Positions 1,090-26,301 of a stretch of 33,263 nucleotides of DNA are shown here, in pieces. The notes below the pieces were generated by a model. That model was not told the origin of the DNA. It did not search any database and was given only the letters and a program-made list of their open reading frames with translations. The number at the start of each line of letters is the position of its first letter. Position 1 is the first letter of the stretch. Made by a program: the position numbers and the translations under genes. The stretch comes from a virus. Lineage: Duplodnaviria; Heunggongvirae; Uroviricota; Caudoviricetes. The stretch is taken from positions 1 through 33,263 of the IMG/VR virus record IMGVR_UViG_2703718853_000003; one strand, written 5' to 3'.

Positions 1090-1389
1090 TCAGCCAGTCT
1101 TCTGGTCTGAGTGGTGCAAGGTTGTTGAGTCTTGCCCAATGTGTGCGAGAGCCGGGGCTATTTGTCCAGCTGCTGGATCTGTTTCATCAAACATGAACCA
1201 GTCACGATACTTGCGAAAGCGTGGATGCTTAAACAGCTTCATACCTGCTTCCATAGGCATTTTTGATTTTCCTGATTCATATCCATGATATGTGTAGTAA
1301 TTAATTCCAATTAATTCAGCAAGTTCCTTAGTTTTAAGGCGTTCGGATTCACGGATGAGCTTTAGTTTCTCACTTTGTTCACTTGACAT
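1090..1389 (-). CDS. C: Immunity repressor C (P2 C-like)
   Basis: ATG at 1389 preceded by GGAG gives 99 aa, the length I recall for P2 C. It is divergent from cox and directly upstream of int, the P2 lysogenic arrangement. The ORF-track start at 1407 is a TTG. Confidence 0.75.
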   Translation of the reverse strand: MSSEQSEKLKLIRESERLKTKELAELIGINYYTYHGYESGKSKMPMEAGMKLFKHPRFRKYRDWFMFDETDPAAGQIAPALAHIGQDSTTLHHSDQKTG

Positions 1390-1407
1390 AATTTTGCTAA
1401 TCTCCAA

Positions 1408-1482
1408 TTATATTGTTACTTGGCAATTTGCGATTCACTCAAAAAGGCTCTAGATGGCTCCAGTTGGTGAATCGCAAATCTT
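1408..1482. promoter_or_regulatory. C/cox divergent switch region with 13-bp perfect inverted repeat (candidate operator and face-to-face promoters)
   Basis: atttgcgattcac at 1426-1438 and its reverse complement gtgaatcgcaaat at 1468-1480, located between the divergent C and cox start codons. Confidence 0.5.
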
Positions 1483-1854
1483 ATGGAGGATAGCAAAGTG
1501 ACGACAAATGTAGAAATTTCTTGTCCAACTAGCGATGAGGCAAGTTTCGAAAATGAAGCCAAACGTAAAAGCATTCAGATTTCAGAGCGCCCATCTGATT
1601 TGCTGTCGAAAGAAGGTTTTGCTCTTTACATCGGTAAGACACCACGCGCGGTGGCTGAAATGGCTAAAGCAGGAAAGCTGCCAGCCTTCTACATGACAGA
1701 CCCATTAAAACCAAGAGGGAAAGCTGAATTATGGATTAATCGCCGTGAGTGGGACAAGTACGCAGCCCAACTGGTTGATGAAGCTCCGACAGAATGGCAT
1801 GACTGGAAAAATCGCATTAGTTACAGCAAATCAAGACATGGCCGTGCGGCTTAA
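1483..1854 (+). CDS. cox: Cox/Apl-like excisionase and transcriptional regulator
   Basis: First rightward gene after the switch. The segment GKTPRAVAEMAKAGKLPAFYMTDP resembles the Cox HTH region. At 123 aa it is longer than P2 Cox (91 aa). The start may instead be GTG 1498, which follows GGAGGA. Confidence 0.6.
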   Translation: MEDSKVTTNVEISCPTSDEASFENEAKRKSIQISERPSDLLSKEGFALYIGKTPRAVAEMAKAGKLPAFYMTDPLKPRGKAELWINRREWDKYAAQLVDEAPTEWHDWKNRISYSKSRHGRAA

Positions 1855-1864
1855 GGTGGAAAGG

Positions 1865-2035
1865 ATGAACGAGCCTCGTTGTATTGCTCAGTTACTGCGT
1901 AACGAAAGCCCCAGGGCGATTGACTTCACCATCACCCACGGTAAGGGGCGTAAGGGAATCATTATCCGCACCAAAAAACAGAGTCCGTTAAAAAAGGCTC
2001 TGACCTTTCTGAAAAGCCGGAGGGTCTGGAAATGA
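1865..2035 (+). CDS. Small early hypothetical protein (P2 orf78 position)
   Basis: ATG at 1865 preceded by AAGGTGGA; 56 aa; its stop overlaps the B start (ATGA). The ORF-track start at 1745 overlaps cox and is less likely. Confidence 0.4.
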   Translation: MNEPRCIAQLLRNESPRAIDFTITHGKGRKGIIIRTKKQSPLKKALTFLKSRRVWK

Positions 2036-2532
2036 CAGTGATGACGCTCAATCTCGTCGAAAAACAGCCAGCAACTATGCGCCGGATAATTGGTAAGCAT
2101 CTGGCCGTCCCTCGCTGGCGGGATACATGTGATTATTATAATCAGATGATGGAGCGCGAACGGTTAACGGTTTGCTTTCATGCGCAGTTAAAACAGCGTC
2201 ACGCAACGATGCGTTTTGAAGAAATGAACGACGTCGAACGTGAACGGCTGGTTTGTGCAATTGATGAATTGCGTGGGGCATTCTCAAAACGCCGTCAGGT
2301 TGGCGCAAGTGAGTATGCATATATTAGTTTTTTAACAGTCAGTCAGCGTCGTACTTTATTTATGCATGCCGGATTGACTGAAAAAGAATTCAACCAGCCA
2401 TACTGGCGAATTAATGAAGAGTCATGTTACTGGCGTGATGCTTTATTCCGTGCATTACGTGAATTATTCAGCCTGTTTGAGTATGCACCGACAATTCTGA
2501 CGTCGGTAAAACCAGAGCAATATCTGCATTAA
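2032..2532 (+). CDS. B: Replication protein B (P2 gpB-like)
   Basis: 166 aa, the length I recall for P2 B, and in the expected position after cox. Confidence 0.7.
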   Translation: MTVMTLNLVEKQPATMRRIIGKHLAVPRWRDTCDYYNQMMERERLTVCFHAQLKQRHATMRFEEMNDVERERLVCAIDELRGAFSKRRQVGASEYAYISFLTVSQRRTLFMHAGLTEKEFNQPYWRINEESCYWRDALFRALRELFSLFEYAPTILTSVKPEQYLH

Positions 2533-2595
2533 GTAATTAACCAGAGTTTTAAACGCACTTAATTGTGCGGGGCTTCTTTTTGCCTGGAGAAAGTC

Positions 2596-2820
2596 ATGCA
2601 TACAGTTTCTGAAAATCAGTGCGGTAAATACGCATTACTGCTGCAACAGGCCAGAACCGAAGCACAGGCCGACGCAGCGACGCGCTTTTCTTCTCATCTT
2701 GATGCCATGATTCGCCACATCACAAAGGCGGAGTTATCCCGCGTAGAGATAGTCGAGCTGCTCAGTCAGGAGTCGGAAAAATTTCACAATATCGGATTGT
2801 CTCGCGGGGAGGTGCTTTGA
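2596..2820 (+). CDS. Early hypothetical protein (P2 orf80 position)
   Basis: ATG at 2596 preceded by GGAGAAAG; 74 aa. Confidence 0.5.
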
Positions 2821-3122
2821 TGTCCTGTTCTCGTTCAGTTGTATTACTGAATAACGCCTTAAAAATCACCGTTATGAAAAATGGCGATTTATCTCTTATT
2901 CAACTTGGTCTTGATAAAGAAAAACGCGAAATAACTGAGTCTGTTATCGCGATTTATCAGAACGAATTAAATCTCCTGTCTGATGTGGTCAATTTACTTG
3001 TTAAGCGCGCTGTATTTCACAAGCAAATCTCCTCCGTGGATGAACTGACGAAATTAACGACAGAAATTGCCAGCTATTGCGCTGATGAATTTAAAAAACT
3101 TAACGACAAAAGGAGCTGGTAA
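2820..3122 (+). CDS. Early hypothetical protein (P2 orf81 position)
   Basis: ATG at 2820 overlaps the upstream stop and is preceded by GGGGAGGTG; 100 aa. Confidence 0.5.
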   Translation: MSCSRSVVLLNNALKITVMKNGDLSLIQLGLDKEKREITESVIAIYQNELNLLSDVVNLLVKRAVFHKQISSVDELTKLTTEIASYCADEFKKLNDKRSW

Positions 3123-3346
3123 TGCCGGACAACGTAGATTTTATTCAGGAACAACAGGCTGAATTACTGGAGCGTCAGATTAACGCGGCAAGGGTAAAAC
3201 ATGGCGGTGCTTCTGCGCTGGTTTGCGAAGAGTGTGACGCGCCAATACCTGCTGCCCGTCGTGCGGCTTACCCGTCAGCCACGCGTTGTGTTTCCTGTCA
3301 GTCAGTCTTTGAAGCAAAAAACAAACATTACCGGAGAACGGCATGA
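3122..3346 (+). CDS. TraR/DksA-family C4 zinc-finger protein (P2 orf82 position)
   Basis: 74 aa with CEECDAPIP...CVSCQ, a C4 zinc finger typical of phage TraR/DksA-like proteins. Start overlaps the upstream stop (TAATG). Confidence 0.7.
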   Translation: MPDNVDFIQEQQAELLERQINAARVKHGGASALVCEECDAPIPAARRAAYPSATRCVSCQSVFEAKNKHYRRTA

Positions 3347-3618
3347 GTATTCGTATTGAAATTGGCGAACGTTATGTCGTTACCAGTGACAGCTTTCAGT
3401 TTATTCTCCACGAGAAAAAGAGAGCGGAAAGCGGTAAAAACGCCGGTCAGGAATGGCTGGCGGTGGTTGGTTATTACCCGAAATTAAGCCAGCTCGTTTC
3501 CGGCCTGATGCATCACGATATTCTGACCGGAAGCGCAAAGTCTTTTGCTGATTTAAACGCGCAGGTTGAGCAACTCAGCAAGCGTTGTTCAGAGGCTTTT
3601 GGCTCATATGGCCGTTAA
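3343..3618 (+). CDS. Early hypothetical protein (P2 orf83 position)
   Basis: 91-aa ORF, ATGA-coupled to the upstream gene. Confidence 0.5.
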   Translation: MSIRIEIGERYVVTSDSFQFILHEKKRAESGKNAGQEWLAVVGYYPKLSQLVSGLMHHDILTGSAKSFADLNAQVEQLSKRCSEAFGSYGR

Positions 3619-5728
3619 AGCCTCCGGGCGTTTTGTCCCTCCGTCAGCATTTGCCGCAGGCACCGGTAAGGCGTTTACCGGTGCTTATGCATGGAACGCG
3701 CCACGCGAGGCTGTCGGGCGCGAAAGACCCCTTACACGTGACGAGATGCGTCAGGTGCAAGGTGTTTTATCCACGATTAACCGCCTGCCTTACTTTTTGC
3801 GCTCGCTGTTTACTTCACGCTATGACTACATCCGGCGCAATAAAAGCCCGGTACACGGGTTTTATTTCCTCACATCCACTTTTCAGCGTCGTTTATGGCC
3901 GCGCATTGAGCGTGTGAATCAGCGCCATGAAATGAACACCGACGCGTCGTTGCTGTTTCTGGCAGAGCGTGACCACTATGCGCGCCTGCCGGGAATGAAT
4001 GACAAGGAGCTGAAAAAGTTTGCCGCCCGTATCTCATCGCAGCTTTTCATGATGTATGAGGAACTCAGCGATGCCTGGGTGGATGCGCATGGCGAAAAAG
4101 AATCGCTGTTTACGGATGAGGCGCAGGCTCACCTGTATGGTCATGTTGCTGGCGCTGCACGTGCTTTCAATATTTCCCCTCTCTACTGGAAAAAATACCG
4201 TAAAGGACAGATGACCACGAGGCAGGCATATTCTGCCATTGCCCGTCTGTTTAACGATGAGTGGTGGACTCATCAGCTTAAAGGCCAGCGTATGCGCTGG
4301 CATGAGGCGTTACTGATTGCTGTCGGGGAGGTCAATAAAGACCGTTCTCCTTATGCCAGTAAACATGCCATTCGTGATGTGCGTGCGCGCCGCCAGGCAA
4401 ATCTGGAATTTCTTAAATCGTGTGACCTTGAAAACAGGGAAACCGGCGAGCGCATCGACCTTATCAGTAAGGTGATGGGCAGTATTTCTAATCCTGAAAT
4501 TCGCCGGATGGAGCTGATGAACACCATTGCCGGTATTGAGCGTTACGCCGCCGCAGAGGGTGATGTGGGGATGTTTATCACGCTGACCGCGCCGTCAAAG
4601 TATCACCCGACACGTCAGGTCGGAAAAGGCGAAAGTAAAACCGTCCAGCTAAATCACGGCTGGAACGATGAGGCATTTAATCCAAAGGATGCGCAGCGTT
4701 ATCTCTGCCGTATCTGGAGCCTGATGCGCACGGCATTCAAGGATAATGACTTACAGGTCTACGGTTTGCGTGTCGTCGAGCCACACCACGACGGAACGCC
4801 GCACTGGCATATGATGCTTTTTTGTAATCCACGCCAGCGTAACCAGATTATTGAAATCATGCGTCGCTACGCGCTCAAAGAGGATGGAGACGAAAGAGGA
4901 GCTGCGCGAAACCGTTTTCAGGCAAAACACCTTAACCGGGGCGGTGCTGCGGGGTATATCGCGAAATACATCTCAAAAAACATCGATGGCTATGCACTGG
5001 ATGGTCAGCTCGATAACGACACCGGCAGGCCGCTGAAAGACACAGCCGCGGCTGTTACCGCATGGGCGTCAACGTGGCGCATACCACAATTTAAAACGGT
5101 TGGCCTGCCGACAATGGGGGCTTACCGTGAACTACGCAAATTGCCCCGCGGCGTCAGCATTGCTGATGAGTTTGACGAGCGCGTCGAGGCTGCACGCGCC
5201 GCCGCAGACAGTGGTGATTTTGCGCTGTATATCAGCGCGCAGGGCGGGGCAAATGTCCCGCGCGATTGTCAGACTGTCAGGGTCGCCCGTAGTCCGTCGG
5301 ATGACGTTAACGAGTACGAGGAAGAAGTCGAGAGAGTGGTCGGCATTTACGCGCCGCATCTCGGCGCGCGTCATATTCATATCACCAGAACGACGGACTG
5401 GCACATTGTGCCGAAAGTTCCGGTCGTTGAGCCTTTGACTTTAAAAAGCGGCATCGCCGCGCCTCGGAGTCCTGTCAATAACTGTGGAAAGCTCTCCGGT
5501 GGTGATGCTTCGTTACCGGCTCCCACACCTTCTGAGCACGCCGCAGCAGTGCTTAATCTGGTTGATGACGGTGTTATCGAATGGAATGACCCGGAGGTCG
5601 TGAGGGCGCTCAGGGGCGCATTAAAACACGGGCTGAGAACGCCAAATCGTCAGCAAGGAAACGGAAGCCCGTTAAAACCACATGAAATAGCACCGTCGGG
5701 CAGATTGAACAGGTGGGAACGATTGTAA
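3608..5728 (+). CDS. A: Replication initiation endonuclease A (rolling-circle HUH nickase)
   Basis: About 706 aa from ATG 3608. Contains HWHMMLF (HUH motif) and a YIAKYISK catalytic-tyrosine motif. The track start at 3566 overlaps the previous gene more, so the internal ATG was preferred. Confidence 0.85.
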   Translation: MAVKASGRFVPPSAFAAGTGKAFTGAYAWNAPREAVGRERPLTRDEMRQVQGVLSTINRLPYFLRSLFTSRYDYIRRNKSPVHGFYFLTSTFQRRLWPRIERVNQRHEMNTDASLLFLAERDHYARLPGMNDKELKKFAARISSQLFMMYEELSDAWVDAHGEKESLFTDEAQAHLYGHVAGAARAFNISPLYWKKYRKGQMTTRQAYSAIARLFNDEWWTHQLKGQRMRWHEALLIAVGEVNKDRSPYASKHAIRDVRARRQANLEFLKSCDLENRETGERIDLISKVMGSISNPEIRRMELMNTIAGIERYAAAEGDVGMFITLTAPSKYHPTRQVGKGESKTVQLNHGWNDEAFNPKDAQRYLCRIWSLMRTAFKDNDLQVYGLRVVEPHHDGTPHWHMMLFCNPRQRNQIIEIMRRYALKEDGDERGAARNRFQAKHLNRGGAAGYIAKYISKNIDGYALDGQLDNDTGRPLKDTAAAVTAWASTWRIPQFKTVGLPTMGAYRELRKLPRGVSIADEFDERVEAARAAADSGDFALYISAQGGANVPRDCQTVRVARSPSDDVNEYEEEVERVVGIYAPHLGARHIHITRTTDWHIVPKVPVVEPLTLKSGIAAPRSPVNNCGKLSGGDASLPAPTPSEHAAAVLNLVDDGVIEWNDPEVVRALRGALKHGLRTPNRQQGNGSPLKPHEIAPSGRLNRWERL

Positions 5729-5985: not shown

Positions 5986-6025
5986 ATTAAATTCATGTAA
6001 CTAGTAAATGCAAATGGAAAAAAGC

Positions 6026-7162
6026 ATGAGAATAAAATCACTGGAGACATATAACTCTCACAGTAAATTGAAAATTAATAAAATAGAATTCAAATCACTG
6101 ACCTTATTGGTTGGTGCTTCAGGTGTAGGGAAAACACAAATACTTCGTTCTATCAATAAAATAAAGTCTATCGCACATGGTGATTCCGTTAGTGGGTTTT
6201 GCTGGAACGTTGAGTTTAATGCTGAAGGTAATGATTATCAATGGTCTGGTGAGTTTGAGGCGCTGGAGGATTATGATGATTTTACTTATGGAATGTTTCA
6301 TTTTGATGATGACGACAAGGTTGAACCAAAAATTATAAAAGAAGAAGTTAAAATCAATGGTTCAATTATTATCACCAGAAGTGGCGATGATATCGTTTAT
6401 AATGACAGTAAAACAGTTAAGCTGGCTTCTACAGTTAGTATAGTTCATCACTTGCGTGAGGAAGATGATATTTCGGTTATACACAAGTCATTTTCACGAA
6501 TTGTGCAAGTTGATGATGATGAAATGCATAAGGTGTTTCCTAGAAAAAATAAAGATGCTTCAGAGGATGAAGAGCTTAGCATCAATGATATCAGAGAGAA
6601 GTCATTCTCTTTGAGTGCTAAGTTGTATTTGTGTCAAGAAAAACAACCAGTCTACTTTCATCAAATTAAAAATTCATTTGTGGAGATTTTTCCATATATT
6701 GAAGATATAAAGGTGGTTAAGGTTGATACAAGAGGGATTCCTTTCTTTGTTCATTCTGTATATGCACTCAAGGTTAAGGAAAGAGGGATTGATGAGTGGA
6801 TTTCGCACAATTCAATGTCTACCGGGATGTTGAAAACATTTGTCCAACTGGCATATCTGCATCTTAGCCCGACGGGAACTGTGTTCTTAATTGATGAGTT
6901 CGAGAATGGCTTTGGTGTTAACTGTATTAATGATATAACAGATGTGCTACTACATCATGGTAATGATGTTCAGTTTATTTTGACGAGTCATCATCCTTAT
7001 ATTATAAATAACATACCGCTTGATAACTGGAAAATTATTTCAAGGAAGGCCGGGGTTGTTGATAACTATTCTGCGGATTTTTTTAATTTAAAAGAATCCA
7101 ATCATGAGGCGTTTACTAAATTAATAAATTTAAGCGTTTATTTTGATGGTGCGGATAGATGA
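6026..7162 (+). CDS. ABC/SMC-like P-loop ATPase (AAA_15/AAA_21-like; OLD N-terminal / AriA-like), cargo gene
   Basis: Walker A GASGVGKT, ABC-signature-like SMSTGMLK, Walker B VFLIDEFENG, H-loop-like LTSHHP. The N-terminus MRIKSLE is typical of this ATPase class. Start could also be ATG 6008 or 6014. AT-rich codon usage unlike the backbone. Confidence 0.8.
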   Translation: MRIKSLETYNSHSKLKINKIEFKSLTLLVGASGVGKTQILRSINKIKSIAHGDSVSGFCWNVEFNAEGNDYQWSGEFEALEDYDDFTYGMFHFDDDDKVEPKIIKEEVKINGSIIITRSGDDIVYNDSKTVKLASTVSIVHHLREEDDISVIHKSFSRIVQVDDDEMHKVFPRKNKDASEDEELSINDIREKSFSLSAKLYLCQEKQPVYFHQIKNSFVEIFPYIEDIKVVKVDTRGIPFFVHSVYALKVKERGIDEWISHNSMSTGMLKTFVQLAYLHLSPTGTVFLIDEFENGFGVNCINDITDVLLHHGNDVQFILTSHHPYIINNIPLDNWKIISRKAGVVDNYSADFFNLKESNHEAFTKLINLSVYFDGADR

Positions 7163-7869
7163 ATTTGTATATTTTGGCTGAGGGGCGACAAACAGAGCGC
7201 AGAATCTATCCGGCATGGATAGGCGTTCTATCTCCATCTTTAAAGCAAGTTGAGTGTTTGTCTGCAATAGATAAAAACAACTATTATTTTATAAGCGGCG
7301 AGGGATATCCTCGTATGATTGATGTGACGCTTATTAATGCAATTAAAGATATACATGATAACCCTAAATTTACCGATTTTTGGGTTGTGCTAGACTCTGA
7401 AGGAGAGGATGTTGAGGCAAGGAGAGAGCTTGTTAGAAATAAGATTGATTCTTCTGGTATAGATATATCTCATTGTGAAGTAAATATAATAGTTCAAAAT
7501 CCGTGCATAGAAACGTGGGGGCTAGGGAATCGAGTCATTATTTCGCCAAATAAGTTGACTGAATCTTTTTTGGACTATTATGAGCACTATGATGTGTCAT
7601 CCAATGATCCAGAGGGTATGGGGAAGCCTCTTGCCTATGACGGATCAATTGCTAAGTATCACGAGAGTTATTTAAAAAGTATGCTTGCTTTAAGAAATGC
7701 AATGTATACGAAAAAAAATCCAGCAGCATTGATGGAGCCTTCATATTTGCAACAGCTTATATCCAGAGCTTATGCTGAGGATGGACATATACCAAGCTTT
7801 AGGCATTTTCATACGTTGGCTACTCAGCTTGAGGCTAAAGCGAAAATGTTGGAAAGCCGTGTAGCGTAG
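7159..7869 (+). CDS. Small TOPRIM-like partner protein (DUF4276/DUF4435-like, putative nuclease), cargo gene
   Basis: 236 aa; start ATG overlaps the ATPase stop (ATGA). N-terminal LYILAEG (conserved Glu) and VVLDSEGED (acidic DxE/D cluster) fit a TOPRIM-like signature. The family call is inferred from motifs only. Confidence 0.6.
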   Translation: MNLYILAEGRQTERRIYPAWIGVLSPSLKQVECLSAIDKNNYYFISGEGYPRMIDVTLINAIKDIHDNPKFTDFWVVLDSEGEDVEARRELVRNKIDSSGIDISHCEVNIIVQNPCIETWGLGNRVIISPNKLTESFLDYYEHYDVSSNDPEGMGKPLAYDGSIAKYHESYLKSMLALRNAMYTKKNPAALMEPSYLQQLISRAYAEDGHIPSFRHFHTLATQLEAKAKMLESRVA

Positions 7870-8191: not shown

Positions 8192-9226
8192 TCAGTCGTT
8201 GTCAGTGTCCAGTGAGTAGTTTTTAAAGCGGATGACCTCCTGACCGAGCCAGCCGTTTATCTCGCGGATCCTGTCCTGTAACGGGATAAGCTCATTGCGG
8301 ACAAAGACCTTTGCCACTTTCTCAATATCCCCCAGTGACCCGACGTTCTCCGGCTTGCCGCCCATCAACTGAAAGGGGATGCGGTGTGCGTCCAGCAGAT
8401 CTGCGGCGCTGACTTTTTTGATATTAAAAAAATCGTCCTTCGTTGCCACTTCACTGAGCGGGATAATTTTAATGCCGTCGGCTTTCCCCTGTGGGGCATA
8501 GAGAAACAGATTTTTAAAGTTGTTGCGGCCTTTCGACTTAACCATGTTTTCGCGAAGCATTTCGATATCGTTGCGATCCTGCACGGCATCGGTGACGTAC
8601 ATGATATATCCGGCATGAGCACCGTTTTCGTAATACTTGCGGCGAAACAGCGTGGCCGACTCATTCAGCCAGGCAGAGTTAAGGGCGCTGAGATATTCCG
8701 GCAGGCCGTACAGCTCCTGATTAATATCCGGCTCCAGCAGGTGAAACACGGAGCCGGGCGTGAAAGGTGTCGGCTCGTTGAAGGACGGCACCCACCAGTA
8801 AACATCCTCCTCCACGCCACGGCGGGTATATTTTGCCGGTGAGGTTTCCAGTCTGATGACCTTACCGGTGGTGCTGTAACGCTTTTCCAGAAACGCATTA
8901 CCGAACACCAGAAAATCCAGCACAAAGCGGCTGAAATCCTGCTGAGAAAGCCACGGATGCGGGATAAATGTTGAGGCCAGAATATTACGTTTGACGTAAA
9001 TCGGTGAGCTGTGATGCACGGCAGCACGCAGGCTTTTTGCCAGACCGGTAAAGCTGACCGGTGGCTCATACCATCTGCCGTTACTGATGCACTCGACGTA
9101 ATCCAGAATGTCACGGCGGTCGAGTACCGGCACCGGCTCACCAAAGGTGAATGCCTCCATTTTCGGGGCGCTGGCGGTCATTGTTTTTGCCGCAGGTCGC
9201 GGTGTTTTCCCTTTTTTCTTGCTCAT
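8192..9226 (-). CDS. Q: Portal protein (gpQ)
   Basis: 344 aa, the length I recall for P2 Q; minus strand next to cos, directly downstream of P. Confidence 0.85.
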   Translation of the reverse strand: MSKKKGKTPRPAAKTMTASAPKMEAFTFGEPVPVLDRRDILDYVECISNGRWYEPPVSFTGLAKSLRAAVHHSSPIYVKRNILASTFIPHPWLSQQDFSRFVLDFLVFGNAFLEKRYSTTGKVIRLETSPAKYTRRGVEEDVYWWVPSFNEPTPFTPGSVFHLLEPDINQELYGLPEYLSALNSAWLNESATLFRRKYYENGAHAGYIMYVTDAVQDRNDIEMLRENMVKSKGRNNFKNLFLYAPQGKADGIKIIPLSEVATKDDFFNIKKVSAADLLDAHRIPFQLMGGKPENVGSLGDIEKVAKVFVRNELIPLQDRIREINGWLGQEVIRFKNYSLDTDND

Positions 9227-10998
9227 CAGTAAAACTCCAGAATGGTGGATGTCAGCGGGGTGCTGATACCGGCGGTGAGTGGCTCATTTAACAGGGCGTG
9301 CATGGTCGCCCAGGCGAGGTCGGCGTGGCTGGCTTCCTCGCTGCGGCTGGCCTCATAGGTGGCGCTGCGTCCGCTGCTGGTCATGGTCTTGCGGATAGCC
9401 ATAAACGAGCTGGTGATGTCGGTGGCGCTGACGTCATATTCCAGACAGCCACGGCGGATAACGTCTTTTGCCTTGAGCACCATTGCGGTTTTCATTTCCG
9501 GCGTGTAGCGGATGTCGCGCGCGGCGGGATAGAACGAGCGCACGAGCTGGAACACGCCGACACCGAGGCCGGTGGCATCAATACCGATGTATTCGACGTT
9601 GTATTTTTCGGTGAGTTTGCGGATGGATTCCGCCTGAGTGGCAAAGTCCATGCCTTTCCACTGGTGACGCTCAAGTATTCTGAATTTGCCACCGGCCACC
9701 ACCGGCGGTGCCAGTACCACGCATCCGGCGCTGTCGCCACGGTGTGACGGGTCGTAACCAATCCATACCGGGCGGGAGCCGAACGGATTCGCGGCAAACG
9801 GCGCATAGTCTTCCCATTCTTCCAGCGTGTCGACCATGCAGCGTTGCAGCTCCTCGAACGGGAACACCGACGCCTTGTCGTCAACAAATTCACACATGAA
9901 CAGGTTTTTAAAATCGTCGGCGCTGTTTTCGCGTTTGAGCTGCTCAATGTCGAACAGCGTGCAGCCGCCTTTCAGGGCGTCCTCAATGGTGACAATCTGC
10001 CGCCACTGGCCGTCCGCACAGAGAAGTCCACCGGCAAGGGCGTTATGACTGACGTCGATTTCCACGCGTTCGGCGGCGCTGGCGCGTCCCCGGTTAAACA
10101 GTTCACCCGACCAGAACGGGTAGGCGTCGTGCGCCAGCGTGGACGGGGTGGAGAAATAGGTCGAACGCAGGTGACTCTGTGAGGCCATACCTGATGCCAC
10201 CTTACGCAGTACCTGAAAATTCGGGATCCAGAAAATCTCGTCGACGTACAGGTCGCCGTTATGGCTCTGTGCGGTGTTGGAGTTGGTGCCGAGAAAAATT
10301 AGTTTTGCGCCGTTATTGCCCAGGACAATCGGGTCACCGGTCAGGTCAACGTCAACCAGACGGGCAAAGGCGATGATGTATTCGCGGAACACATACGCCT
10401 GCGTTTTACTGGCCGACAGAAAAATCTGGTTATGGCCGGTTTTCAGGGCGCGCAGCAGCGCCTCGCGGGAAAAATAAAACGTTGCGCCAATCTGGCGGGA
10501 TTTCAGGATATCGCGGATGCGGTGCTCAAGCCCGGCGCGATACCAGTGCAACTGATAGTCGAAAGACTGCTCAAAGAAAATCTGCTCCAGCTTTTCGATG
10601 GCTTCGTCACTGAAAAAATTCTTTTTCGGTTTGCGACGCCCGCCTTTGTTGCGGTTAGCGACGTTCGGATTAAGGTCTGCCTCGTTGCCGGTCTGACTGT
10701 AACGGTTGACCCGTGCCAGTCGTTCAATCTGGCGTCCGAGCAGGTCAATTTCCTTGAAGTCACCGCCGGTTTTCTGCGGTTTGATGATGAGCTGGGTCAG
10801 CCGCGCTTCCAGACTCATTTCGACACGGCTGATGGGGGCAACACTGTCCCAGCCGTCGCGCTGTTTCCAGCTCTGCACCGTCGGGCGTTTCATCTGCAAC
10901 ATGGCGGCAATCTGCGGCACGGAAAACCCCTGCCAGTACAGCAGCGCCGCCTGACGACGCGGGTCGTGTAAAAGAGTGGTGTCTGTGGTGATGGTCAT
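9226..10998 (-). CDS. P: Terminase large (ATPase) subunit (gpP)
   Basis: About 590 aa from ATG 10998 (MTITTDTTLL) preceded by GAGG. The ORF-track start at 11028 is a TTG. Confidence 0.85.
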   Translation of the reverse strand: MTITTDTTLLHDPRRQAALLYWQGFSVPQIAAMLQMKRPTVQSWKQRDGWDSVAPISRVEMSLEARLTQLIIKPQKTGGDFKEIDLLGRQIERLARVNRYSQTGNEADLNPNVANRNKGGRRKPKKNFFSDEAIEKLEQIFFEQSFDYQLHWYRAGLEHRIRDILKSRQIGATFYFSREALLRALKTGHNQIFLSASKTQAYVFREYIIAFARLVDVDLTGDPIVLGNNGAKLIFLGTNSNTAQSHNGDLYVDEIFWIPNFQVLRKVASGMASQSHLRSTYFSTPSTLAHDAYPFWSGELFNRGRASAAERVEIDVSHNALAGGLLCADGQWRQIVTIEDALKGGCTLFDIEQLKRENSADDFKNLFMCEFVDDKASVFPFEELQRCMVDTLEEWEDYAPFAANPFGSRPVWIGYDPSHRGDSAGCVVLAPPVVAGGKFRILERHQWKGMDFATQAESIRKLTEKYNVEYIGIDATGLGVGVFQLVRSFYPAARDIRYTPEMKTAMVLKAKDVIRRGCLEYDVSATDITSSFMAIRKTMTSSGRSATYEASRSEEASHADLAWATMHALLNEPLTAGISTPLTSTILEFY

Positions 10999-11171
10999 GA
11001 ATACCTCGCCGTGATGAATACACGGCAAGGCTACTGAGTCGCGCCCCGCGATTCGCTAAGGTGCTGTTGTGTCAGTGATAAGCCATCCGGGACTGATGGC
11101 GGAGGATGCGCATCGTCGGGAAACTGATGCCGACATGTGACTCCTCTAATCACTATTCAGGACTCCTGACA

Positions 11172-16927: not shown

Positions 16928-17378
16928 GTTTAAGCGTTTTGAAGACCGGCTGACCGGACTGACTGAATCGCTGTCACCGTCAGGGCGTCGGCGACTGGCG
17001 ATAGATATTGCGAAGAAGCTGCGTCAGCGCCAGCAGCAGCGAATTAAATTACAAAAAGCCCCGGATGGTACGCCGTATGTACCGAGAAAAAACCAACCAG
17101 TACGAAATAAGAAAGGCCGGATAAAGCGGGAAATGTTTGTGAAATTACGCACTAACCGGTTTATGAAAGCAACAGGTAGCGAGAGTGCGGCGGTGGTGGA
17201 GTTTGCCAGCGGAGTACAACGAATTGCGCGAGTACATCAATTAGGGCTTAGGGATAAGCCGGGGCGTAATAGTGCTGTGGTGGAATATCCTGTTCGTGAG
17301 TTATTTGGTTTTGACAAGGAATCTATACAATTGATAGAAAGGGAGTTATTAGTGATTCTATCGAAAGATGTTATATGA
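16920..17378 (+). CDS. S: Tail completion protein S
   Basis: 152 aa in the P2 S position; the 3' end runs into AT-rich sequence. Confidence 0.8.
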   Translation: MNEFKRFEDRLTGLTESLSPSGRRRLAIDIAKKLRQRQQQRIKLQKAPDGTPYVPRKNQPVRNKKGRIKREMFVKLRTNRFMKATGSESAAVVEFASGVQRIARVHQLGLRDKPGRNSAVVEYPVRELFGFDKESIQLIERELLVILSKDVI

Positions 17379-18130
17379 GACGGGTGTTTGTGGATAAAAA
17401 GTTTTCCATTTTGAGAAAAAGAGTAAAGCATTCTCAAAAGAAAGTTATGGATTGTATTATTGCTGACCATAATGCTGATATATGTGTGTTATGCGGGAGT
17501 TCTGACGATATTACTCGTGAGCACATTATTCCTCAGTGGGCCTTTGAGTCAAATGCTGAAAAATCTTTAATTAATAAAAAGAATAATCAGTCAACTCATT
17601 ACATTAAAGCCACTGTACCAGCATGCAGAGTGTGCAATTCTGATTTGCTGGGAGTGTTTGAGTATAACCTGAAGAAATTTCTTACGGAAAAGAGGGGCGA
17701 TGAGTTAACAGATTATGAATATGATTGCATCATATGGTGGTTGCAATACATGGGCTTTAAGTTGCAATTAATGGATTTACGGACCCGCTTTCTCAGGTTT
17801 AAAGGGGGGGATTATATCCCTTTCCTTGCAAACTTCCCGGTTGCAATGTTTTGGGGGAATGTCGATACGACACCGGAGGATGTCTTCAGGATTATAAGAA
17901 AATCGCGACGCAATCTGATGTCGAAATGGAAGGATAAAAAACATAATTCTTTGATGGTTTTTGAAACATCAAACAAGAGTTTTCATTTCTTTCATAAGGT
18001 TGATGAATTTATTTTTATTGAAATGCCTCAGGTTAAGAAGGCGTTTTTCTTCTTTTTTAATAAAGAAATTGACAGCCATGATTTAGCTCATGAGGAGTGT
18101 ATGAAGATTATAGAGAAGTACTACAACTAA
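17375..18130 (+). CDS. HNH-motif protein (putative HNH endonuclease-domain moron, P2 orf30 position)
   Basis: 251 aa, AT-rich, ATGA-coupled to S. CVLCGSSDDITREHIIPQW ... CRVCNSDL matches a CxxC...(E/D)H..P...CxxCN HNH / His-Me finger pattern. Confidence 0.6.
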   Translation: MRRVFVDKKFSILRKRVKHSQKKVMDCIIADHNADICVLCGSSDDITREHIIPQWAFESNAEKSLINKKNNQSTHYIKATVPACRVCNSDLLGVFEYNLKKFLTEKRGDELTDYEYDCIIWWLQYMGFKLQLMDLRTRFLRFKGGDYIPFLANFPVAMFWGNVDTTPEDVFRIIRKSRRNLMSKWKDKKHNSLMVFETSNKSFHFFHKVDEFIFIEMPQVKKAFFFFFNKEIDSHDLAHEECMKIIEKYYN

Positions 18131-20100: not shown

Positions 20101-20623
20101 TTCGCGACTGCTGCCGACCGGCTCATCACCGCTTGAGGTCGCCGCCGCAAAAGCCTGTGCGGAAATTGAAAAAACGCCGGTCAGTATTCGTGAGCTGTGG
20201 AACCCGGATACCTGTCCGGCAAATTTGCTGCCGTGGCTGGCGTGGGCGTTTTCGGTCGACAGGTGGGATGAGAAGTGGCCGGAAGCGACAAAACGCGCCG
20301 TTATCCGCGATGCGTATTTCATCCACTGTCATAAAGGCACTATAGGTGCAATCCGGCGTGTGGTGGAGCCGCTCGGCTATCTCATCAACGTGACGGAGTG
20401 GTGGGAAAACAGCGACCCGCCCGGCACCTTCCGGCTTGATATTGGTGTACTGGAAAGTGGCATCACAGAGGCAATGTATCAGGAAATGGAACGGCTGATT
20501 GCTGATGCCAAACCTGCAAGCCGTCACCTTATTGGCCTGAACATTACCCGGGACATTCCCGGCTACCTGTTCGCCGGTGGTGTGGCTTACGACGGCGATG
20601 TAATTACGGTTTACCCCGGATAA
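20093..20623 (+). CDS. I: Baseplate/tail-fibre attachment protein I
   Basis: 176 aa, the length I recall for P2 I. Confidence 0.85.
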   Translation: MSDSRLLPTGSSPLEVAAAKACAEIEKTPVSIRELWNPDTCPANLLPWLAWAFSVDRWDEKWPEATKRAVIRDAYFIHCHKGTIGAIRRVVEPLGYLINVTEWWENSDPPGTFRLDIGVLESGITEAMYQEMERLIADAKPASRHLIGLNITRDIPGYLFAGGVAYDGDVITVYPG

Positions 20624-20633
20624 GTGAGGAATA

Positions 20634-22883
20634 ATGAGCACAAAATTCAAAACCGTTATCACCACTGCCGGTGCAGCAAAGCTGGCAGCGGCAACCGCGC
20701 CGGGAGGGCGGAAGGTCAACATTACCACGATGGCCGTCGGGGATGGCGGTGGTAAATTGCCTGTCCCGGATGCCGGACAGACCGGGCTTATCCACGAAGT
20801 CTGGCGACATGCGCTGAACAAAATCAGCCAGGACAAACGAAACAGTAATTATATTATCGCAGAGCTGGTTATTCCGCCGGAGGTGGGCGGTTTCTGGATG
20901 CGTGAGCTTGGCCTGTACGATGATGCTGGAACGTTAATTGCCGTGGCGAACATGGCTGAAAGTTATAAGCCAGCTCTTGCCGAAGGCTCAGGGCGTTCGC
21001 AGACCTGCCGCATGGTCATCATCGTCAGCAGTGTGGCCTCAGTGGCGCTGACCATTGACACCACAACGGTGATGGCAACGCAGGATTACGTTGATGACAA
21101 AATTGCAGAACATGAACAGTCACGACGTCACCCGGACGCCTCGCTGACCGCCAAAGGTTTTACTCAGTTAAGCAGTGCGACCAACAGCACGTCTGAAACA
21201 CTCGCCGCAACACCAAAAGCGGTAAAAGCAGCATATGACCTTGCTAACGGGAAATACACTGCACAGGACGCCACCACAGCGCGAAAAGGCCTTGTCCAGC
21301 TCAGTAGTGCCACCAACAGCACGTCTGAAACGCTCGCCGCAACACCAAAAGCGGTAAAAGCAGCATATGACCTTGCTAACGGGAAATACACTGCACAGGA
21401 CGCCACCACAGCGCGAAAAGGCCTTGTCCAGCTCAGTAGCGCCACCAACAGCGATTCTGAAACGCTTGCGGCAACGCCAAAGGCGGTTAAGACAGCGTAT
21501 GACCTTGCTAACGGGAAATACACTGCACAGGATGCCACCACAGCGCGAAAAGGTCTTGTCCAGCTCAGTAGCGCCACCAACAGTGATTCTGAAACGCTGG
21601 CTGCAACACCAAAAGCGGTGAAGTCTGCCTATGACAATGCTGAAAAACGTCTTCAGAAAGATCAGAACGGTGCGGATATTCCTGATAAAGGACGCTTCCT
21701 GAGTAACATTAATGTTTACAGCAAAGGTGAAGTGGATAAGAAAAAGGGAATGCGAAAGTATTCGTTTGCAGCCCCTGCAAATGTCGTTGCCGGGAAGTGG
21801 TATCCCGTTATCTTTCGCCGTGCTGCCAGCCTTTCAGGAGAAATGGCATCCCGCGTCGTTATTTCAACTGGTTGTTATAACGGCGATTATGTAATGAATA
21901 ACTGCGAGTTTAATGGCATGGTTATGCCCGGAGGCTGGACCGATCGTGGTTCATATGCGGCAGGTTATTTCTGGACGTATCAGACTAATGAGCGTTCAAT
22001 CCATTCCATTGTTACAAGCCTGAAAGATGATGATGTATGTAGTGTTTTTTATGTTGAAGCCAGAGCTTTCCCAGTACAAATTCTTGCAGAGGAAGGGCTA
22101 ACGGTTATTGTTCCGACAGAGGATTATGTCGTCGGTCAGACGACATATAAGTGGGGGGCAACTAATCCCGCTACAGAAAGCACGAACGTACAGGCTATTC
22201 TGGATTTTAAAAATGGACGTGGTTATTACTGTTCACATCCATTTATTTCCAGCCTTTCAGGAAATGCTGCAACAGCAACTAAGTTAGCGAACGCAAGAAA
22301 TATTAATGGTGTCAGATTTGATGGCTCTGCCGATATAAATATTAATACACTGGTATCCAGAAACCGTGTTACTGCATTAGGTGGGAGCGTAAAGGGGACA
22401 CCAGGTATTCAGATGTATGAGGCATACAACAATGGCTACCCAACAGCCTATGGTAATGTGCTTCATCTCACTGGCGTAACCGCTGTAGGAGAGGGTGAGT
22501 TACTTATTGGCTGGAGTGGAACCAGCGGTGCTCATGCTCCGGCATATATTCGCTCCCGACGAGATACCACAGATGCTAACTGGTCTGGATGGGCGCAACT
22601 ATATACAACTGCTCATAAACCCTCAGCGGGAGATGTTGGTGCATACACCAAAGCTGAGTCAGATTCACGTTATGTGAGAGACATGCGGCTGGGCGGTGCA
22701 TCTACATATAAACCAGCAAATAATGGTACTACATGGACGCATCAGGCTCCGTCAGGTTGCGTATATACCGGCATTATTGTTCAGGATACCGGCTCAAACT
22801 CTGCCGATAACATTGGTGGCGTATATTACAGACCGGTGCAGAAATACATTAACGGGACATGGTATAACGTGGCGCAGGTATAA
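20634..22883 (+). CDS. H: Tail fibre protein H
   Basis: 749 aa. Conserved N-terminus, tandem tail-fibre repeats in the middle, and an AT-richer divergent C-terminal (receptor-binding) part. Confidence 0.85.
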   Translation: MSTKFKTVITTAGAAKLAAATAPGGRKVNITTMAVGDGGGKLPVPDAGQTGLIHEVWRHALNKISQDKRNSNYIIAELVIPPEVGGFWMRELGLYDDAGTLIAVANMAESYKPALAEGSGRSQTCRMVIIVSSVASVALTIDTTTVMATQDYVDDKIAEHEQSRRHPDASLTAKGFTQLSSATNSTSETLAATPKAVKAAYDLANGKYTAQDATTARKGLVQLSSATNSTSETLAATPKAVKAAYDLANGKYTAQDATTARKGLVQLSSATNSDSETLAATPKAVKTAYDLANGKYTAQDATTARKGLVQLSSATNSDSETLAATPKAVKSAYDNAEKRLQKDQNGADIPDKGRFLSNINVYSKGEVDKKKGMRKYSFAAPANVVAGKWYPVIFRRAASLSGEMASRVVISTGCYNGDYVMNNCEFNGMVMPGGWTDRGSYAAGYFWTYQTNERSIHSIVTSLKDDDVCSVFYVEARAFPVQILAEEGLTVIVPTEDYVVGQTTYKWGATNPATESTNVQAILDFKNGRGYYCSHPFISSLSGNAATATKLANARNINGVRFDGSADININTLVSRNRVTALGGSVKGTPGIQMYEAYNNGYPTAYGNVLHLTGVTAVGEGELLIGWSGTSGAHAPAYIRSRRDTTDANWSGWAQLYTTAHKPSAGDVGAYTKAESDSRYVRDMRLGGASTYKPANNGTTWTHQAPSGCVYTGIIVQDTGSNSADNIGGVYYRPVQKYINGTWYNVAQV
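21156..21645 (+). repeat. About 3.7 tandem copies of a 132-bp (44-aa) in-frame phage tail-fibre repeat inside H
   Basis: Repeated LSSATNS(T/D)SETLAATPKAVKAAYDLANGKYTAQDATTARKGLVQ units with nearly identical nucleotide sequence. This is what produces the long antisense ORF 21164..21580. Confidence 0.85.
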
Positions 22884-22886
22884 TTT

Positions 22887-23414
22887 ATGCAGCATTTAAA
22901 AAATATTACGGCGGGTAATCCAAAAACGGTTGAACAATATCAATTGACAAAGGACTTTGATGTTGTCTGGTTTTTTTCTGAAGATGGTAAGAACTGGTAC
23001 GAAGAACAAAAGTATTTTGCTGATGACACGATAAAAATAGCGTACGACAAAGATAATATCATCCGCTATGTGGAAAAGGATGTGACAGCTATCAGACCGG
23101 ATGGATTAAGTATTGTTGAAGTGGCGGATATTACTGCTAACCGACGGGCGGACATTTCAGGGAACTGGATGTTTAAGGACGGCAAAGTGATTAAACGCAT
23201 TTATACGGCAGAGGAATTACAGCAGCAGGCAGAAATTCAGAAAGCCAGACTTCTTGCAGATGCTGAATCCGTGATTTTGCCGCTGGAGCGCGCGGTCAGA
23301 CTGAACATGGCAACAGATGAGGAGCGCACACGGCTGGAGGCTTGGGAACGCTACAGCGTTGTGGTCAGTCGTGTAGATCCTGCAAATCCTGAATGGCCGG
23401 AAATGCCGCAATAA
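22887..23414 (+). CDS. G: Tail fibre assembly protein G
   Basis: 175 aa, the length I recall for P2 G, directly after H. Confidence 0.85.
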
Positions 23415-23592
23415 GTTGTATGAACTCTTGTGTGAGCTTACATACCTATAGAACAGAGTAAAGCCTAATCTGACAGTCCGCTCTGTGCCAGGAGCGGACG
23501 TTACTGACATCACAATGTGTTAATCAATAGAGAGCAGGTCACCATAATGTCATGGGTATCGCTGGTGATATGATCGCAATACACGACAATTA

Positions 23593-24267
23593 TTATTTAA
23601 TGATTTTAAAAAGTTCATTGTAGCTACAACCTTTGAATATTTCGAACTGATCATGGTAATTTGAATAAGCGCTTGCCATCATTCCGATATAACTATCCCA
23701 TGATGACTCAGAAACTACCCTTTCACCACGCTCTAATTCATCAATTAAAATATAAATAATATTAAATTGTGCAACAAGAGCAGTGTAGGTGGTGATGAGA
23801 TTATTTAGAAGGTCTGAATGATTAGGTTTGATTTTCCACAAACCAAAACTATCCCGAATTGCAACTAATTCGAATCGTAAATCTTTTGACTCAGAAAGTA
23901 ACTCCCTCCCACTTGTAGTGAGATGCTTGTAGAGTATGGGGTTCTCACTTTTTATTCTTGGCTGTATAGAAATAAGTGATTGATAACATTGATGATTTAA
24001 GTCCTTTGATCGAAACATGCTGTCGATGAACAATGTAGTTCTCTCGAAAGCCTTTTCTGATTTTTTGTTTTTAATCCATTCATTTACCCTTGTTAATGCA
24101 TAAATCGCTAGTCCAAGTGTTATTGTTGAAACTGTTGCAGTAATTGTTGATGGTTCAATTTTTTTAAAAAACCAGATATCAATCCATGCAAAAGAGACTG
24201 AGCCGAGATACATAAACAACATGTGACTCGCGAAGTATTCCCAAACACCTTTTAAATAGCTTTTCAT
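23593..24267 (-). CDS. Small membrane protein (two predicted N-terminal TM helices), cargo gene of unknown function
   Basis: AT-rich minus-strand ORF. The second ATG (24267) is preceded by AAGGA; the first ATG is at 24282. Hydrophobic stretches HMLFMYLGSVSFAWIDIWFF and ITATVSTITLGLAIYAL. A TATAAT-like -10 lies just upstream on the minus strand (plus 24290-24295). Confidence 0.6.
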   Translation of the reverse strand: MKSYLKGVWEYFASHMLFMYLGSVSFAWIDIWFFKKIEPSTITATVSTITLGLAIYALTRVNEWIKNKKSEKAFERTTLFIDSMFRSKDLNHQCYQSLISIQPRIKSENPILYKHLTTSGRELLSESKDLRFELVAIRDSFGLWKIKPNHSDLLNNLITTYTALVAQFNIIYILIDELERGERVVSESSWDSYIGMMASAYSNYHDQFEIFKGCSYNELFKIIK

Positions 24268-24443
24268 GTAGATCCTTAACATTTTCTTAATTATATTTTA
24301 TGGTGGTATTTTTGTTAGTATCGGCATGGATTAGAAATAGTTGATACTTTTATGCCCTGAGAGCATGAAAACTGGAAAAGCCTTGCTCATGATATAAATA
24401 GTGTTAGTTGCCACTGCTTTGGAAGTTATCCTTTAAATGGGCT

Positions 24444-24700
24444 ATCGGAAAGCCAGACTTCTAGCAGATGCTGAATCCGTGATTTTGCCGCTGGAGCGCG
24501 CTGTCAGGCTGAATATGGCAACAGATGAGGAGCGCAGTCGACTGGAGGCATGGGAACGCTACAGCGTTCTGGTCAGTCGTGTGGATCCTGCAAATCCTGA
24601 ATGGCCGGAAATGCCGCAAGAAGTTGTATGAGCTCTGGTGTGAACTTACATATCTATGGCACAGAGTAAAGCCTAATCTGACAGTCCGCTCTGTGCCGAA
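24444..24700 (+). repeat. Degenerate direct duplicate of the 3' end of G plus its downstream sequence (G' remnant)
   Basis: About 250 bp highly similar to 23236-23490. The encoded [57 protein letters not shown] copies the G C-terminus, with the G stop changed to a sense codon. Not an independent gene. Confidence 0.8.
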
Positions 24701-24921
24701 GCTAGCAAAGCCATGGTCCTTTCGCAGCAAGTTGCGTAAATAAGGCGTTTTTATCTCTTGAAGCATTCTACAAAGCCAACTCCTCGCTCAAACAGACGTG
24801 TCTGTTCAGCAATCTGCCCGCTTGGTATCAAGGGACGCCAGTAACGCGATACCGGGTGAATTCCTTCCTTAACTGCCCTCACATCATCTTTAATAATAGT
24901 TTACCCTGATATAACGGATGA

Positions 24922-26301
24922 TCAGAAGTCAATCAGGTCATCGAATTTCTGAGGTGGCTCTTGTTTTCGAACGCTATCTCCCTGATGAATCTCCGTCTCA
25001 CTTGTTTGGTATTTTACACCAGTAATTTTATGATAAGTCATACTGTTGGTTTTCAACAGTAGTGCATCATTTTTGTCATGCGAGGATGAAAATGAACCCA
25101 TATGTCTCGGTTTTATTTGTTCCTCAACTATCAACTGAATTTCCGGAACAAAAGCATACTGGTCATCTTCGATGTGTTCATACATCTCAACATTATATCG
25201 GCGAGATTTATCTGCGGCATGCCTGACGCCGGAAGACTTATTAAACAGAACGACATTATATCCTGTCTCAGCATCCTCACCGTTGGCATCTACCTGGGTA
25301 GATTTAAAGCTGACACCATCAAGCTTAAATTTATTTCGGTCACCTAGGTAATCGGCAACCACTTGGGTGATGAGGTAATCACTGTCCTGCCTTTTTCCAA
25401 AAGTAGGAAGCGTCAACTTACGGGAAAGCGTACTGAAAAAAATCGCGCGCTCACTGGTTTTGCGAGTCTGAGGATCAAATTTACTACCTGAGCCGAAACT
25501 AATCGAGTCAAGGGCAGAAATGTCCAGCACTTTTAGCTCGCGTAACGGTATAAAACAGGCCGTTACTACAATACTGCCGACGGGCGGCCTTACTTCAGCA
25601 ATTGCCAAATTCACTGAGGTTGCACCGTAAAATACTGAAATCCCCTGTGCGTTCATACGGCCCGACCGAGCCAAAGTTGTTGGGGGAGGTCCAAAATTTT
25701 TCTCGGGATGCTCCAAGGCTTGCTTTACTTCCTCTTGGTCCTCAAAAACCCTTGCACGAAAAAGATGAACCTCATCAGTCAGAGTTTTTATCGGTGAATT
25801 ACTGTCTCTGTTTTTTAGTTTATCGATATCACTGAAAAGTGAATCCAGGAAATCATTAACTTCACGGTTAAAATATCGTGTTTCTTTCATAAGGGAGTCA
25901 GTGGCTTTACTCCAGGTATGCGCAAGCTCTCCGCTATAGTGATTTATGTGCCGATAAAGAAACCCGTCATTATACCGGATGTAGTCATAATCGTTATGCG
26001 GATTATATTCATCACAAAGAAGTTCATAAATATCTTCAGCTACGTCCCATTCGACGCCCAGTTCTCCGTAGATGACATCCTGCGCGCTATCACCGCGCCC
26101 GGAATCATAGATATCCTCATATATATCATAATAGTACTCAAAAACCTCATTCATCATCTTGAGAATATATTTGAGGTGGATGTTTTTACGCTTCCTTTTG
26201 CAGTAAGAGCAAATCTGAAAATTATTTCCAGTTTTTATTATATGCTGCATGACATATTTATCGTTCACGCATTTATGACAAATATACTTATCTTCCCACA
26301 T
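24922..26301 (-). CDS. RES-domain protein with N-terminal zinc ribbon (candidate NAD+-targeting abortive-infection effector), cargo gene
   Basis: 459 aa, AT-rich, minus strand. N-terminal CHKC-x19-CSYC zinc ribbon. RES signature LFRARV ... SGRMNAQGISVFYGATSVNLAIAEV ... DGVSFKS...GYNVVLFN at about aa 178-356 (roughly nt 25234-25770). Domain call is by motif recognition only. Confidence 0.65.
   Translation of the reverse strand: MWEDKYICHKCVNDKYVMQHIIKTGNNFQICSYCKRKRKNIHLKYILKMMNEVFEYYYDIYEDIYDSGRGDSAQDVIYGELGVEWDVAEDIYELLCDEYNPHNDYDYIRYNDGFLYRHINHYSGELAHTWSKATDSLMKETRYFNREVNDFLDSLFSDIDKLKNRDSNSPIKTLTDEVHLFRARVFEDQEEVKQALEHPEKNFGPPPTTLARSGRMNAQGISVFYGATSVNLAIAEVRPPVGSIVVTACFIPLRELKVLDISALDSISFGSGSKFDPQTRKTSERAIFFSTLSRKLTLPTFGKRQDSDYLITQVVADYLGDRNKFKLDGVSFKSTQVDANGEDAETGYNVVLFNKSSGVRHAADKSRRYNVEMYEHIEDDQYAFVPEIQLIVEEQIKPRHMGSFSSSHDKNDALLLKTNSMTYHKITGVKYQTSETEIHQGDSVRKQEPPQKFDDLIDF

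Follow-up and report, generated by a model that had tools for sequence, protein, structure and literature searches.

Four fibre repeats, a patchwork of distal cassettes and a co-varying chaperone in the tail fibre gene H of a P2-like prophage

The tail fibre gene H (20634..22883, plus strand) of the window, by which we mean the whole 33,263-nucleotide stretch of DNA analysed in this work, encodes a protein of 749 amino acids, whilst its counterpart in phage P2 has 669. An earlier note on this DNA had remarked on the difference, and both lengths agree with what the open reading frame and the P2 record (AF063097) give. The question raised by this locus is how the fibre came by its length and its unusual distal part: by recent multiplication of a repeat, by exchange of modules with other phages, or merely by faulty assembly of a repetitive region.

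The genes of the window are those of a P2-like (Peduovirus) prophage: an integrase gene (1-996, minus strand), a gene for the gpA replication protein (3566-5728) and the usual late genes. H sits in a P2-type operon of the order V-W-J-I-H-G, where its upstream neighbour is the baseplate gene I (PF09684, Tail_P2_I) and where G, the gene of a tail fibre assembly protein or chaperone (22887..23414, plus strand; PF02413, Caudo_TAP, E = 1e-33), starts 3 nt past its end. The first 151 residues of H (20634..21086, plus strand) match PF12571 (‘Phage tail-collar fibre protein, N-terminal’) with E = 2e-58 and a score of 197 bits (cut-off 23), and this N-terminal domain is at least 98% identical across 80 related IMG/VR loci. 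RefSeq labels the same allele ‘tail fiber protein’ in dozens of complete genomes. With the PF12571 domain, the position of the gene between V-W-J-I and G, the PF03406 repeats and a tip of the gpH/Mu S type, the sequences of H and G show every feature of a P2-type gpH/gpG pair that can be tested on them. The locus is very probably that of a P2-like prophage H with its chaperone G, in which H is a chain of interchangeable modules.

The comparison with P2 itself shows where such a chain may be cut. The two phages share the operon position and 96.7% DNA identity from V up to about 21352-21358 within H, and their H proteins have in common the PF12571 domain, the first two PF03406 units and the last 17 residues. 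P2 H, however, has two repeat units only and a shaft of its own (TVMDETNKK...), which joins within unit 2. DNA similarity is undetectable over 21359-22828 and resumes, at 77%, in the last 55 nt (from 22829); the C-terminus, then, does not align throughout with P2 H. The two G genes are homologous, with 77% DNA identity.

The repeats themselves are real and far above what chance would produce. They form a tandem array of period 132 bp and about 3.8 copies (21141..21641, plus strand), which repeat detection, Pfam and the register of the units together resolve into four PF03406 units of 44 amino acids. Tandem Repeats Finder reports 21180-21619 (period 132, 3.3 copies, 93% matches, score 733), a second repeat search widens this to 21153-21641, and Pfam recognizes four stretches of the ‘Phage tail fibre repeat’ family (E = 6e-81). 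The units, taken in register, begin at 21141, 21273, 21405 and 21537 and occupy residues 170-345. The DNA identity of neighbouring units is 85%, 90% and 74%, and the perfect runs listed for the successive pairs are about 93, 47 and 47 nt; the last 94 nt of units 1 and 2 are identical bar one base, and units 2 and 3 share perfect runs of 47 and 45 nt, one at each end. The figure of about 3.7 copies in the earlier note was therefore fair, whilst its ‘near-identical’ was slightly generous. The central parts of the units define two types in the order A-A-B-B (i.e., NSTSE...KAAYD twice, then NSDSE...K[T/S]AYD twice).

The repeat length is a multiple of three (132 = 3 x 44) and the copies have long perfect runs in common, so that slippage or unequal recombination would add or remove whole units, shifting the length of the shaft and leaving the protein intact. 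In the variants with two to five units, the frame and the C-terminus are always kept. Three-unit alleles have the order A-B-B, the product expected of unequal crossing-over between the perfect runs. A different kind of repeat, the phase-variable contingency locus that acts by shifting the reading frame, is ruled out by the length of the unit, which is 132 nt, or 44 codons, and divisible by three.

Could the count of four be an artefact, as the earlier note feared, i.e., the outcome of a mis-joined or inflated array? The array is indeed hard to assemble: many H proteins of draft genomes are ‘partial’, 200-300 amino acids long and terminate within it, and all the proteins returned by a search with the N-domain were shorter than 300 amino acids. 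A large protein collection contains, besides, about 47 distinct proteins of 705 amino acids (three units) and 13 of 661 (two units) whose C-terminus is 99-100% identical to that of the window. The two-unit forms, however, are confined to short-read contigs of at most 354 kb, in Logan and k141 metagenome assemblies, and a synthetic two-unit query found no such allele in 5,426 complete genomes. When the array with both its unique flanks (20900-22400) was compared to complete E. coli genomes, 43 of the 45 matched over the full query, NCTC9699 among them, had the exact span of the window (i.e., four units), and the remaining two (PapRG-06-3 and SWHEFF_58) were 132 nt shorter (i.e., three units). 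Ten IMG/VR loci encode the 749-aa type of the protein, and four units are likewise present in the sequenced phages P22H4 and 9W. An artefactual four is, in the light of all this, extremely improbable, and where assembly does go wrong the error is one of collapse rather than inflation: the short two-unit and partial forms most likely arose when the assembly of short reads collapsed the repeats or broke the contig. Such assemblies probably under-count the units or break within the array, and the lengths of H in draft genomes (661 or 705 amino acids instead of 749) should not be regarded as biological variants unless long reads support them. The warning of the earlier note that the locus is prone to slippage and misassembly is borne out by these observations, together with the occurrence of three-, four- and five-unit variants on one and the same C-terminus.

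If the four units are genuine, are they an expansion? Unit number was determined by locating the junction behind the repeats in 76 full-length H genes, the window, P2 and P22H4 included, drawn from the comparison with the 80 IMG/VR loci most similar in the H N-domain (at least 98% identical). In this sample, whose frequencies are biased towards the window's own lineage, two units were found in 14 of the 76, all with the P2-type shaft (TVMDETNKK...), four in 50 and five in 12, the latter two classes with a DNAEK linker. Thus, the ‘extra copies’ claimed previously are extra in relation to P2 (four against two) but not to close relatives, where four is the modal number and P2 the short outlier. 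Gain and loss of units does occur, as four- and five-unit forms are found within one C-terminal cluster (772 against 816 amino acids in one case, 657 against 701 in another). It could then be argued that recent slippage in place widened a two-unit array like that of P2, independently of any exchange at the C-terminus, and both the near-perfect identity of the ends of units 1 to 3 and the variation in unit number on a single C-terminus would agree with this. We nevertheless regard such a history as unlikely. Among the 76 genes, two units are restricted to those with the P2-type shaft, which joins inside unit 2 (at 21352), and four or five to the DNAEK-linker types; units 3 and 4 form a separate type that differs from units 1 and 2 at several synonymous sites; and four units are the common state and not a derived oddity. 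Unit number is thus tied to the distal module: P2 has two units since the join to its own shaft module lies within the second one, and the difference between P2 and the window goes with the attached module and is no simple recent expansion.

What follows the array is different in composition as well. GC content and GC at third codon positions (GC3), computed per segment of H, fall from 0.555 and 0.59 in the N-domain and 0.535 and 0.49 in the array to 0.444 and 0.36, 0.466 and 0.36, and 0.473 and 0.39 in the three consecutive distal segments, which we call cassettes C, D and E. The shift pointed out in the earlier note is real; it concerns, however, not the C-terminal third of H but its C-terminal 55%, beginning directly past the array at about 21642 (residue 337), and it extends over the N-terminal half of G (GC 0.39), the C-terminal half of that gene being back at 0.53. 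In principle, a tip rich in Asn, Tyr, Lys and Ile, residues abundant in fibre tips and favouring AT-rich codons, could become AT-rich through constraints on its amino acids or codons and without any foreign origin. This explanation is very unlikely, given that the shift is greatest at third codon positions (GC3 from 0.59 to 0.36), starts at a recombination junction, coincides with the abrupt end of DNA identity to P2 and P22H4, and affects segments whose close homologues are in unrelated phage families.

The junctions themselves recur. In a megablast of the window against the 80 related loci, similarity repeatedly ends on the left at 21352, 21635, 21692 and 22276, and resumes on the right at 22617, 22662 and 22824-22839. 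Together, these points delimit cassettes C, D and E. Two of these left-hand breakpoints (21635 and 21692), seen in many loci, fall in the conserved linker SAYDNAEKRLQKDQNGADIPDKG (21624..21692, plus strand; identified by comparison of the loci), which follows the last repeat in most of the non-P2 C-terminal types. The four- and five-unit alleles all run on into the conserved linker SAYDNAEKRLQKDQNGADIP; in Mu S and S′, the one PF03406 unit is likewise followed by this linker. Conserved sequences such as these would double as homology patches for the swapping of cassettes.

The first of the segments beyond the linker, cassette C (21693..22276, plus strand; residues 354-548), belongs to no Pfam family and seems to be an all-beta central domain. 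It is recognized by its homology to siphovirus side tail fibres, with 54-77% protein identity (residues ~353-570) to those of HdSG1, 9g, JenK1 and the lambdoid mEp332; these fibres belong to other virion types and have other N-terminal anchors and distal ends, so that the internal domain alone is common to them and H. At the DNA level, cassette C is 97-99% identical in P22H4, 9W and several IMG/VR loci, the match ending exactly at 22276, and several prophages that carry it go on to a different tip. The C-terminal 400 residues of H had no match in a Pfam scan, and an AlphaFold2 model of the monomer (residues 331-749, from an alignment of 20 sequences) reached a mean pLDDT of 34.5, with an all-beta stretch at about residues 365-525 that can be taken as a hint.

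Cassette D (22277..22661, plus strand; residues 549-676) is P1 Sv′-like and bounded on the right by the junctions at 22617 and 22662, and it is this segment that sets the allele apart from its nearest relatives. The closest sequenced phages, P22H4 (LR595869) and 9W (OM475431), have H proteins of 748 amino acids and 97-98% DNA identity to the window over 20634-22276 and 95.6% over 22584-23490, G included. Between these two stretches, about 307 nt (residues 549-650; 22277-22583 in the comparison with P22H4) are without DNA similarity, which amounts to a single internal cassette swap. The exact allele of the window is found in E. coli chromosomes but not in the phage collection, in which coverage by any one record stays below 80%.

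Cassette E (22662..22883, plus strand; residues 677-749), known elsewhere as the ‘gpH domain’, is the distal tip and ends in RPVQKYINGTWYNVAQV, a terminus common to P2. In phmmer it matches solved structures, namely Mu S′ (8JU3; residues 638-747), Mu S (5YVQ; residues 673-748) and a short tail fiber (9CUY; residues 677-746). Its identity in fiAA91-ss, P24E6b and P24C9 is 94-96%, and it is present as a ‘gpH domain’ in large myoviruses such as phAPEC8 and CR3. Cassettes D and E together (residues 540-749) are 61.5% identical to the alternative fibre end Sv′ of P1. The resemblance to Mu S/S′ (with U/U′) and to P1 S (Sv′) extends to the PF03406 unit followed by a linker of the form D-N-A-x-x-R-L-x-K-D-x-N-G-A-D-I-P, to a homologous tip ending INGTWYN and to a chaperone of the Tfa type, and solved structures exist for these fibres (5YVQ, 8JU3). 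Mu and P1 fibres differ from H in their N-terminal attachment, and the identity is about 45-61%.

The comparison of the C-terminus with other phage families thus finds matches in P1, Mu and several siphovirus fibres. These matches, the interruption of P2 identity between about 21352 and 22829, and the recurrent junctions in the 80 loci strongly support the module exchange proposed in the earlier note. Its single ‘divergent C-terminal domain’ is divergent indeed, but it is not one module: at least three cassettes, bounded by junctions that recur, are pieced together over 55% of H, and the exchanged unit reaches into G.

The N-terminal half of G (to about 23200) belongs to the exchanged module and the C-terminal half is conserved. 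The final 70 residues of H were used to sort 69 loci by tip class. In all 42 loci of the window-like class, the N-terminal half of G was 95-100% identical to that of the window, and in all 27 of the P2-like class, to which P2 belongs, it was 67-69% identical at the protein level, so that tip class and N-terminal half of G co-vary perfectly (69/69); the C-terminal half, on the other hand, was 80-100% identical across all 69. In the Tfa model, the tip of the fibre is bound by a variable N-domain of the chaperone, whose conserved C-domain trimerises (PMC9608196, citing North et al. 2019), and G fits this type of chaperone (gpG, Mu U, lambda Tfa). Because its N-terminal half would bind the tip and its conserved C-terminal half would trimerise, tip and N-terminal half would be exchanged together, each travelling with the other.

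Downstream of G there is an orphan second copy of its 3′ end, 253 nt long (24445..24697, plus strand) and 93% identical to 23237-23489. It resembles the G of P22H4 (95%) more than it does the G of the window itself, and no further copies of the G 3′ end were found in 74 related IMG/VR loci. This fragment is likely a scar of an earlier recombination in which the conserved end of G served as right-hand homology. Its position 1.2 kb downstream, together with the homology of tip and linker to Mu S/S′ and P1 Sv′ and the fact that the related phage P88 carries a DNA invertase and alternative fibre genes, might otherwise evoke a switchable fibre system with an invertible segment, like the G segment of Mu or the C segment of P1, of which the duplicated end would be part. 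The probability of such a switch here is close to nil. The duplication is direct and not inverted; the sole inverted pair in 20600-25000 is a weak one of 20 nt and 80% complementarity, and no inverted crossover repeats accompanied by an invertase were found in that interval and in the two scanned ORFs between G and FI; these ORFs encode a 229-aa protein of no known kind and a RES-domain protein, neither of them an invertase; and no fibre or chaperone gene lies on the opposite strand. Invertible segments with their invertase are a property of the Mu and P1 systems which the present one does not share. The 229-aa and RES-domain proteins had no match in PADLOC.

From the N-domain onwards, the order of modules in H is four PF03406 units, the linker and at least three distal cassettes, and their working can be proposed by analogy with the fibres of P2, Mu and P1. 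The conserved N-domain would plug the trimeric fibre into the baseplate, where it presumably docks; the four 44-residue ‘phage tail fibre repeats’ would form part of the proximal shaft, each adding to the length of the fibre. The distal half consists of a central domain like that of siphovirus side fibres, a P1 Sv′-like segment and a tip of the Mu S′/gpH type, very probably brought together by recombination with the fibres of unrelated phages. Trimerisation of H probably starts at the tip, with the assistance of G.

In the P2-family phage P88, a swap of 31 residues near the C-terminus of the fibre (positions 716-746) altered host range (PMC5285337), which supports the tip as a determinant of specificity; the H of this phage, from its coordinates, has 764 amino acids. 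By analogy with such published relatives, the distal cassettes of the present fibre would set receptor specificity (probably towards LPS) and host range, and the number of units would alter its reach. It is tempting to go further and speculate that selection may fit the number of units to the distal module or to the surface of the host (i.e., reach against the depth of O-antigen or capsule) and, separately, that cassette C may offer a further site for glycan binding, which, if true, would provide two receptor contacts in one fibre. Taken jointly, these two conjectures are rather doubtful. As an observation in its own right, five units go with one of the shortest C-termini (335 amino acids) and two units only with the long P2 shaft, and this, beside the pairing of shaft type and unit number, hints at a selected number of units.

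None of this is new in kind. It is a textbook case of tail fibre mosaicism, the allele was already public, and PF03406 is a curated Pfam repeat. The sequencing of P2 H and G by Haggard-Ljungquist et al. in 1992 reportedly led to the view that segments of tail fibres had been exchanged horizontally among P2, P1, Mu and lambdoid phages.

The value of the results is practical rather than conceptual. They provide a map of the points at which P2-type fibres can be cut and re-joined (21352, 21635/21692, 22276, 22617/22662 and 22824), and with it the rule that a tip must be moved along with the N-terminal half of G. Both the map and the rule are useful for the engineering of P2/P4 delivery particles or of retargeted tailocins.

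Two overlapping genes on the + strand probably make up an AbiL-type defence system, the first (6008-7162) encoding an AAA_21 ATPase with a PADLOC match to AbiLi (E = 8e-19) and the second (7159-7869) a 236-aa partner with a weak match to AbiLii (E = 9e-6). The pair has gene A on one side and, on the other, ORFs at 8192-11028 (- strand) whose position in the P2 gene order makes them the presumed portal and terminase genes. Its site (6008-7869) is the old/tin variable locus of P2. A further variable slot lies at 17375-18130 (+ strand), just upstream of the start of the similarity to P2 gene V (18207), since the 251-aa ORF found here stands where P2 has the non-essential orf30, on the opposite strand. 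No family was found for this ORF in Pfam or PADLOC.

Two proteins from outside the window contain sequence of the tail fibre gene H. In one of them (P0121, E. coli, 621 aa), the N-terminal part of the baseplate spike gpV (PF04717, PF18715) is fused directly to one fibre repeat, after which the C-terminus is 100% identical to that of the window's H; either a decayed prophage has lost the DNA between V and H, or the contig was misassembled. Another (P0001) is a 229-aa H fragment whose frame shifts inside the second repeat unit (...DATTREKALSSSVGHQQL), and the 688 member sequences it stands for suggest that a frameshifted (defective) form of H is widespread or that the array is repeatedly misread in sequencing. 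In the P2-family phage P88 (KP063541), a DNA invertase adjoins alternative fibre and chaperone genes lying on both strands (1261-5470), in the manner of the Mu/P1 switch, whereas the window has no such invertase switch.

Next to the fibre genes, 253-nt direct repeats of the 3′ end of the chaperone gene G (23237-23489 and 24445-24697) enclose a segment (23490-24444) with a very AT-rich (GC 0.35) 229-aa ORF on the - strand (23593-24282). The encoded protein has hydrophobic stretches at its N-terminus and belongs to no family found in Pfam, PHROG or PADLOC. Only about eight complete E. coli genomes share this arrangement, and all 74 related IMG/VR loci lack it; recombination between the repeats could remove the ORF.

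The place of the T5-exclusion gene fun(Z) of P2 is taken in the window by a gene on the - strand (24922-26301), without an obvious partner, for a 459-aa RES-domain protein (E = 4e-14; RefSeq label 'RES family NAD+ phosphorylase'), which also weakly matches HEPN/RES N-terminal domain 1. PADLOC has no model for this protein, which is a candidate for phage-defence cargo.
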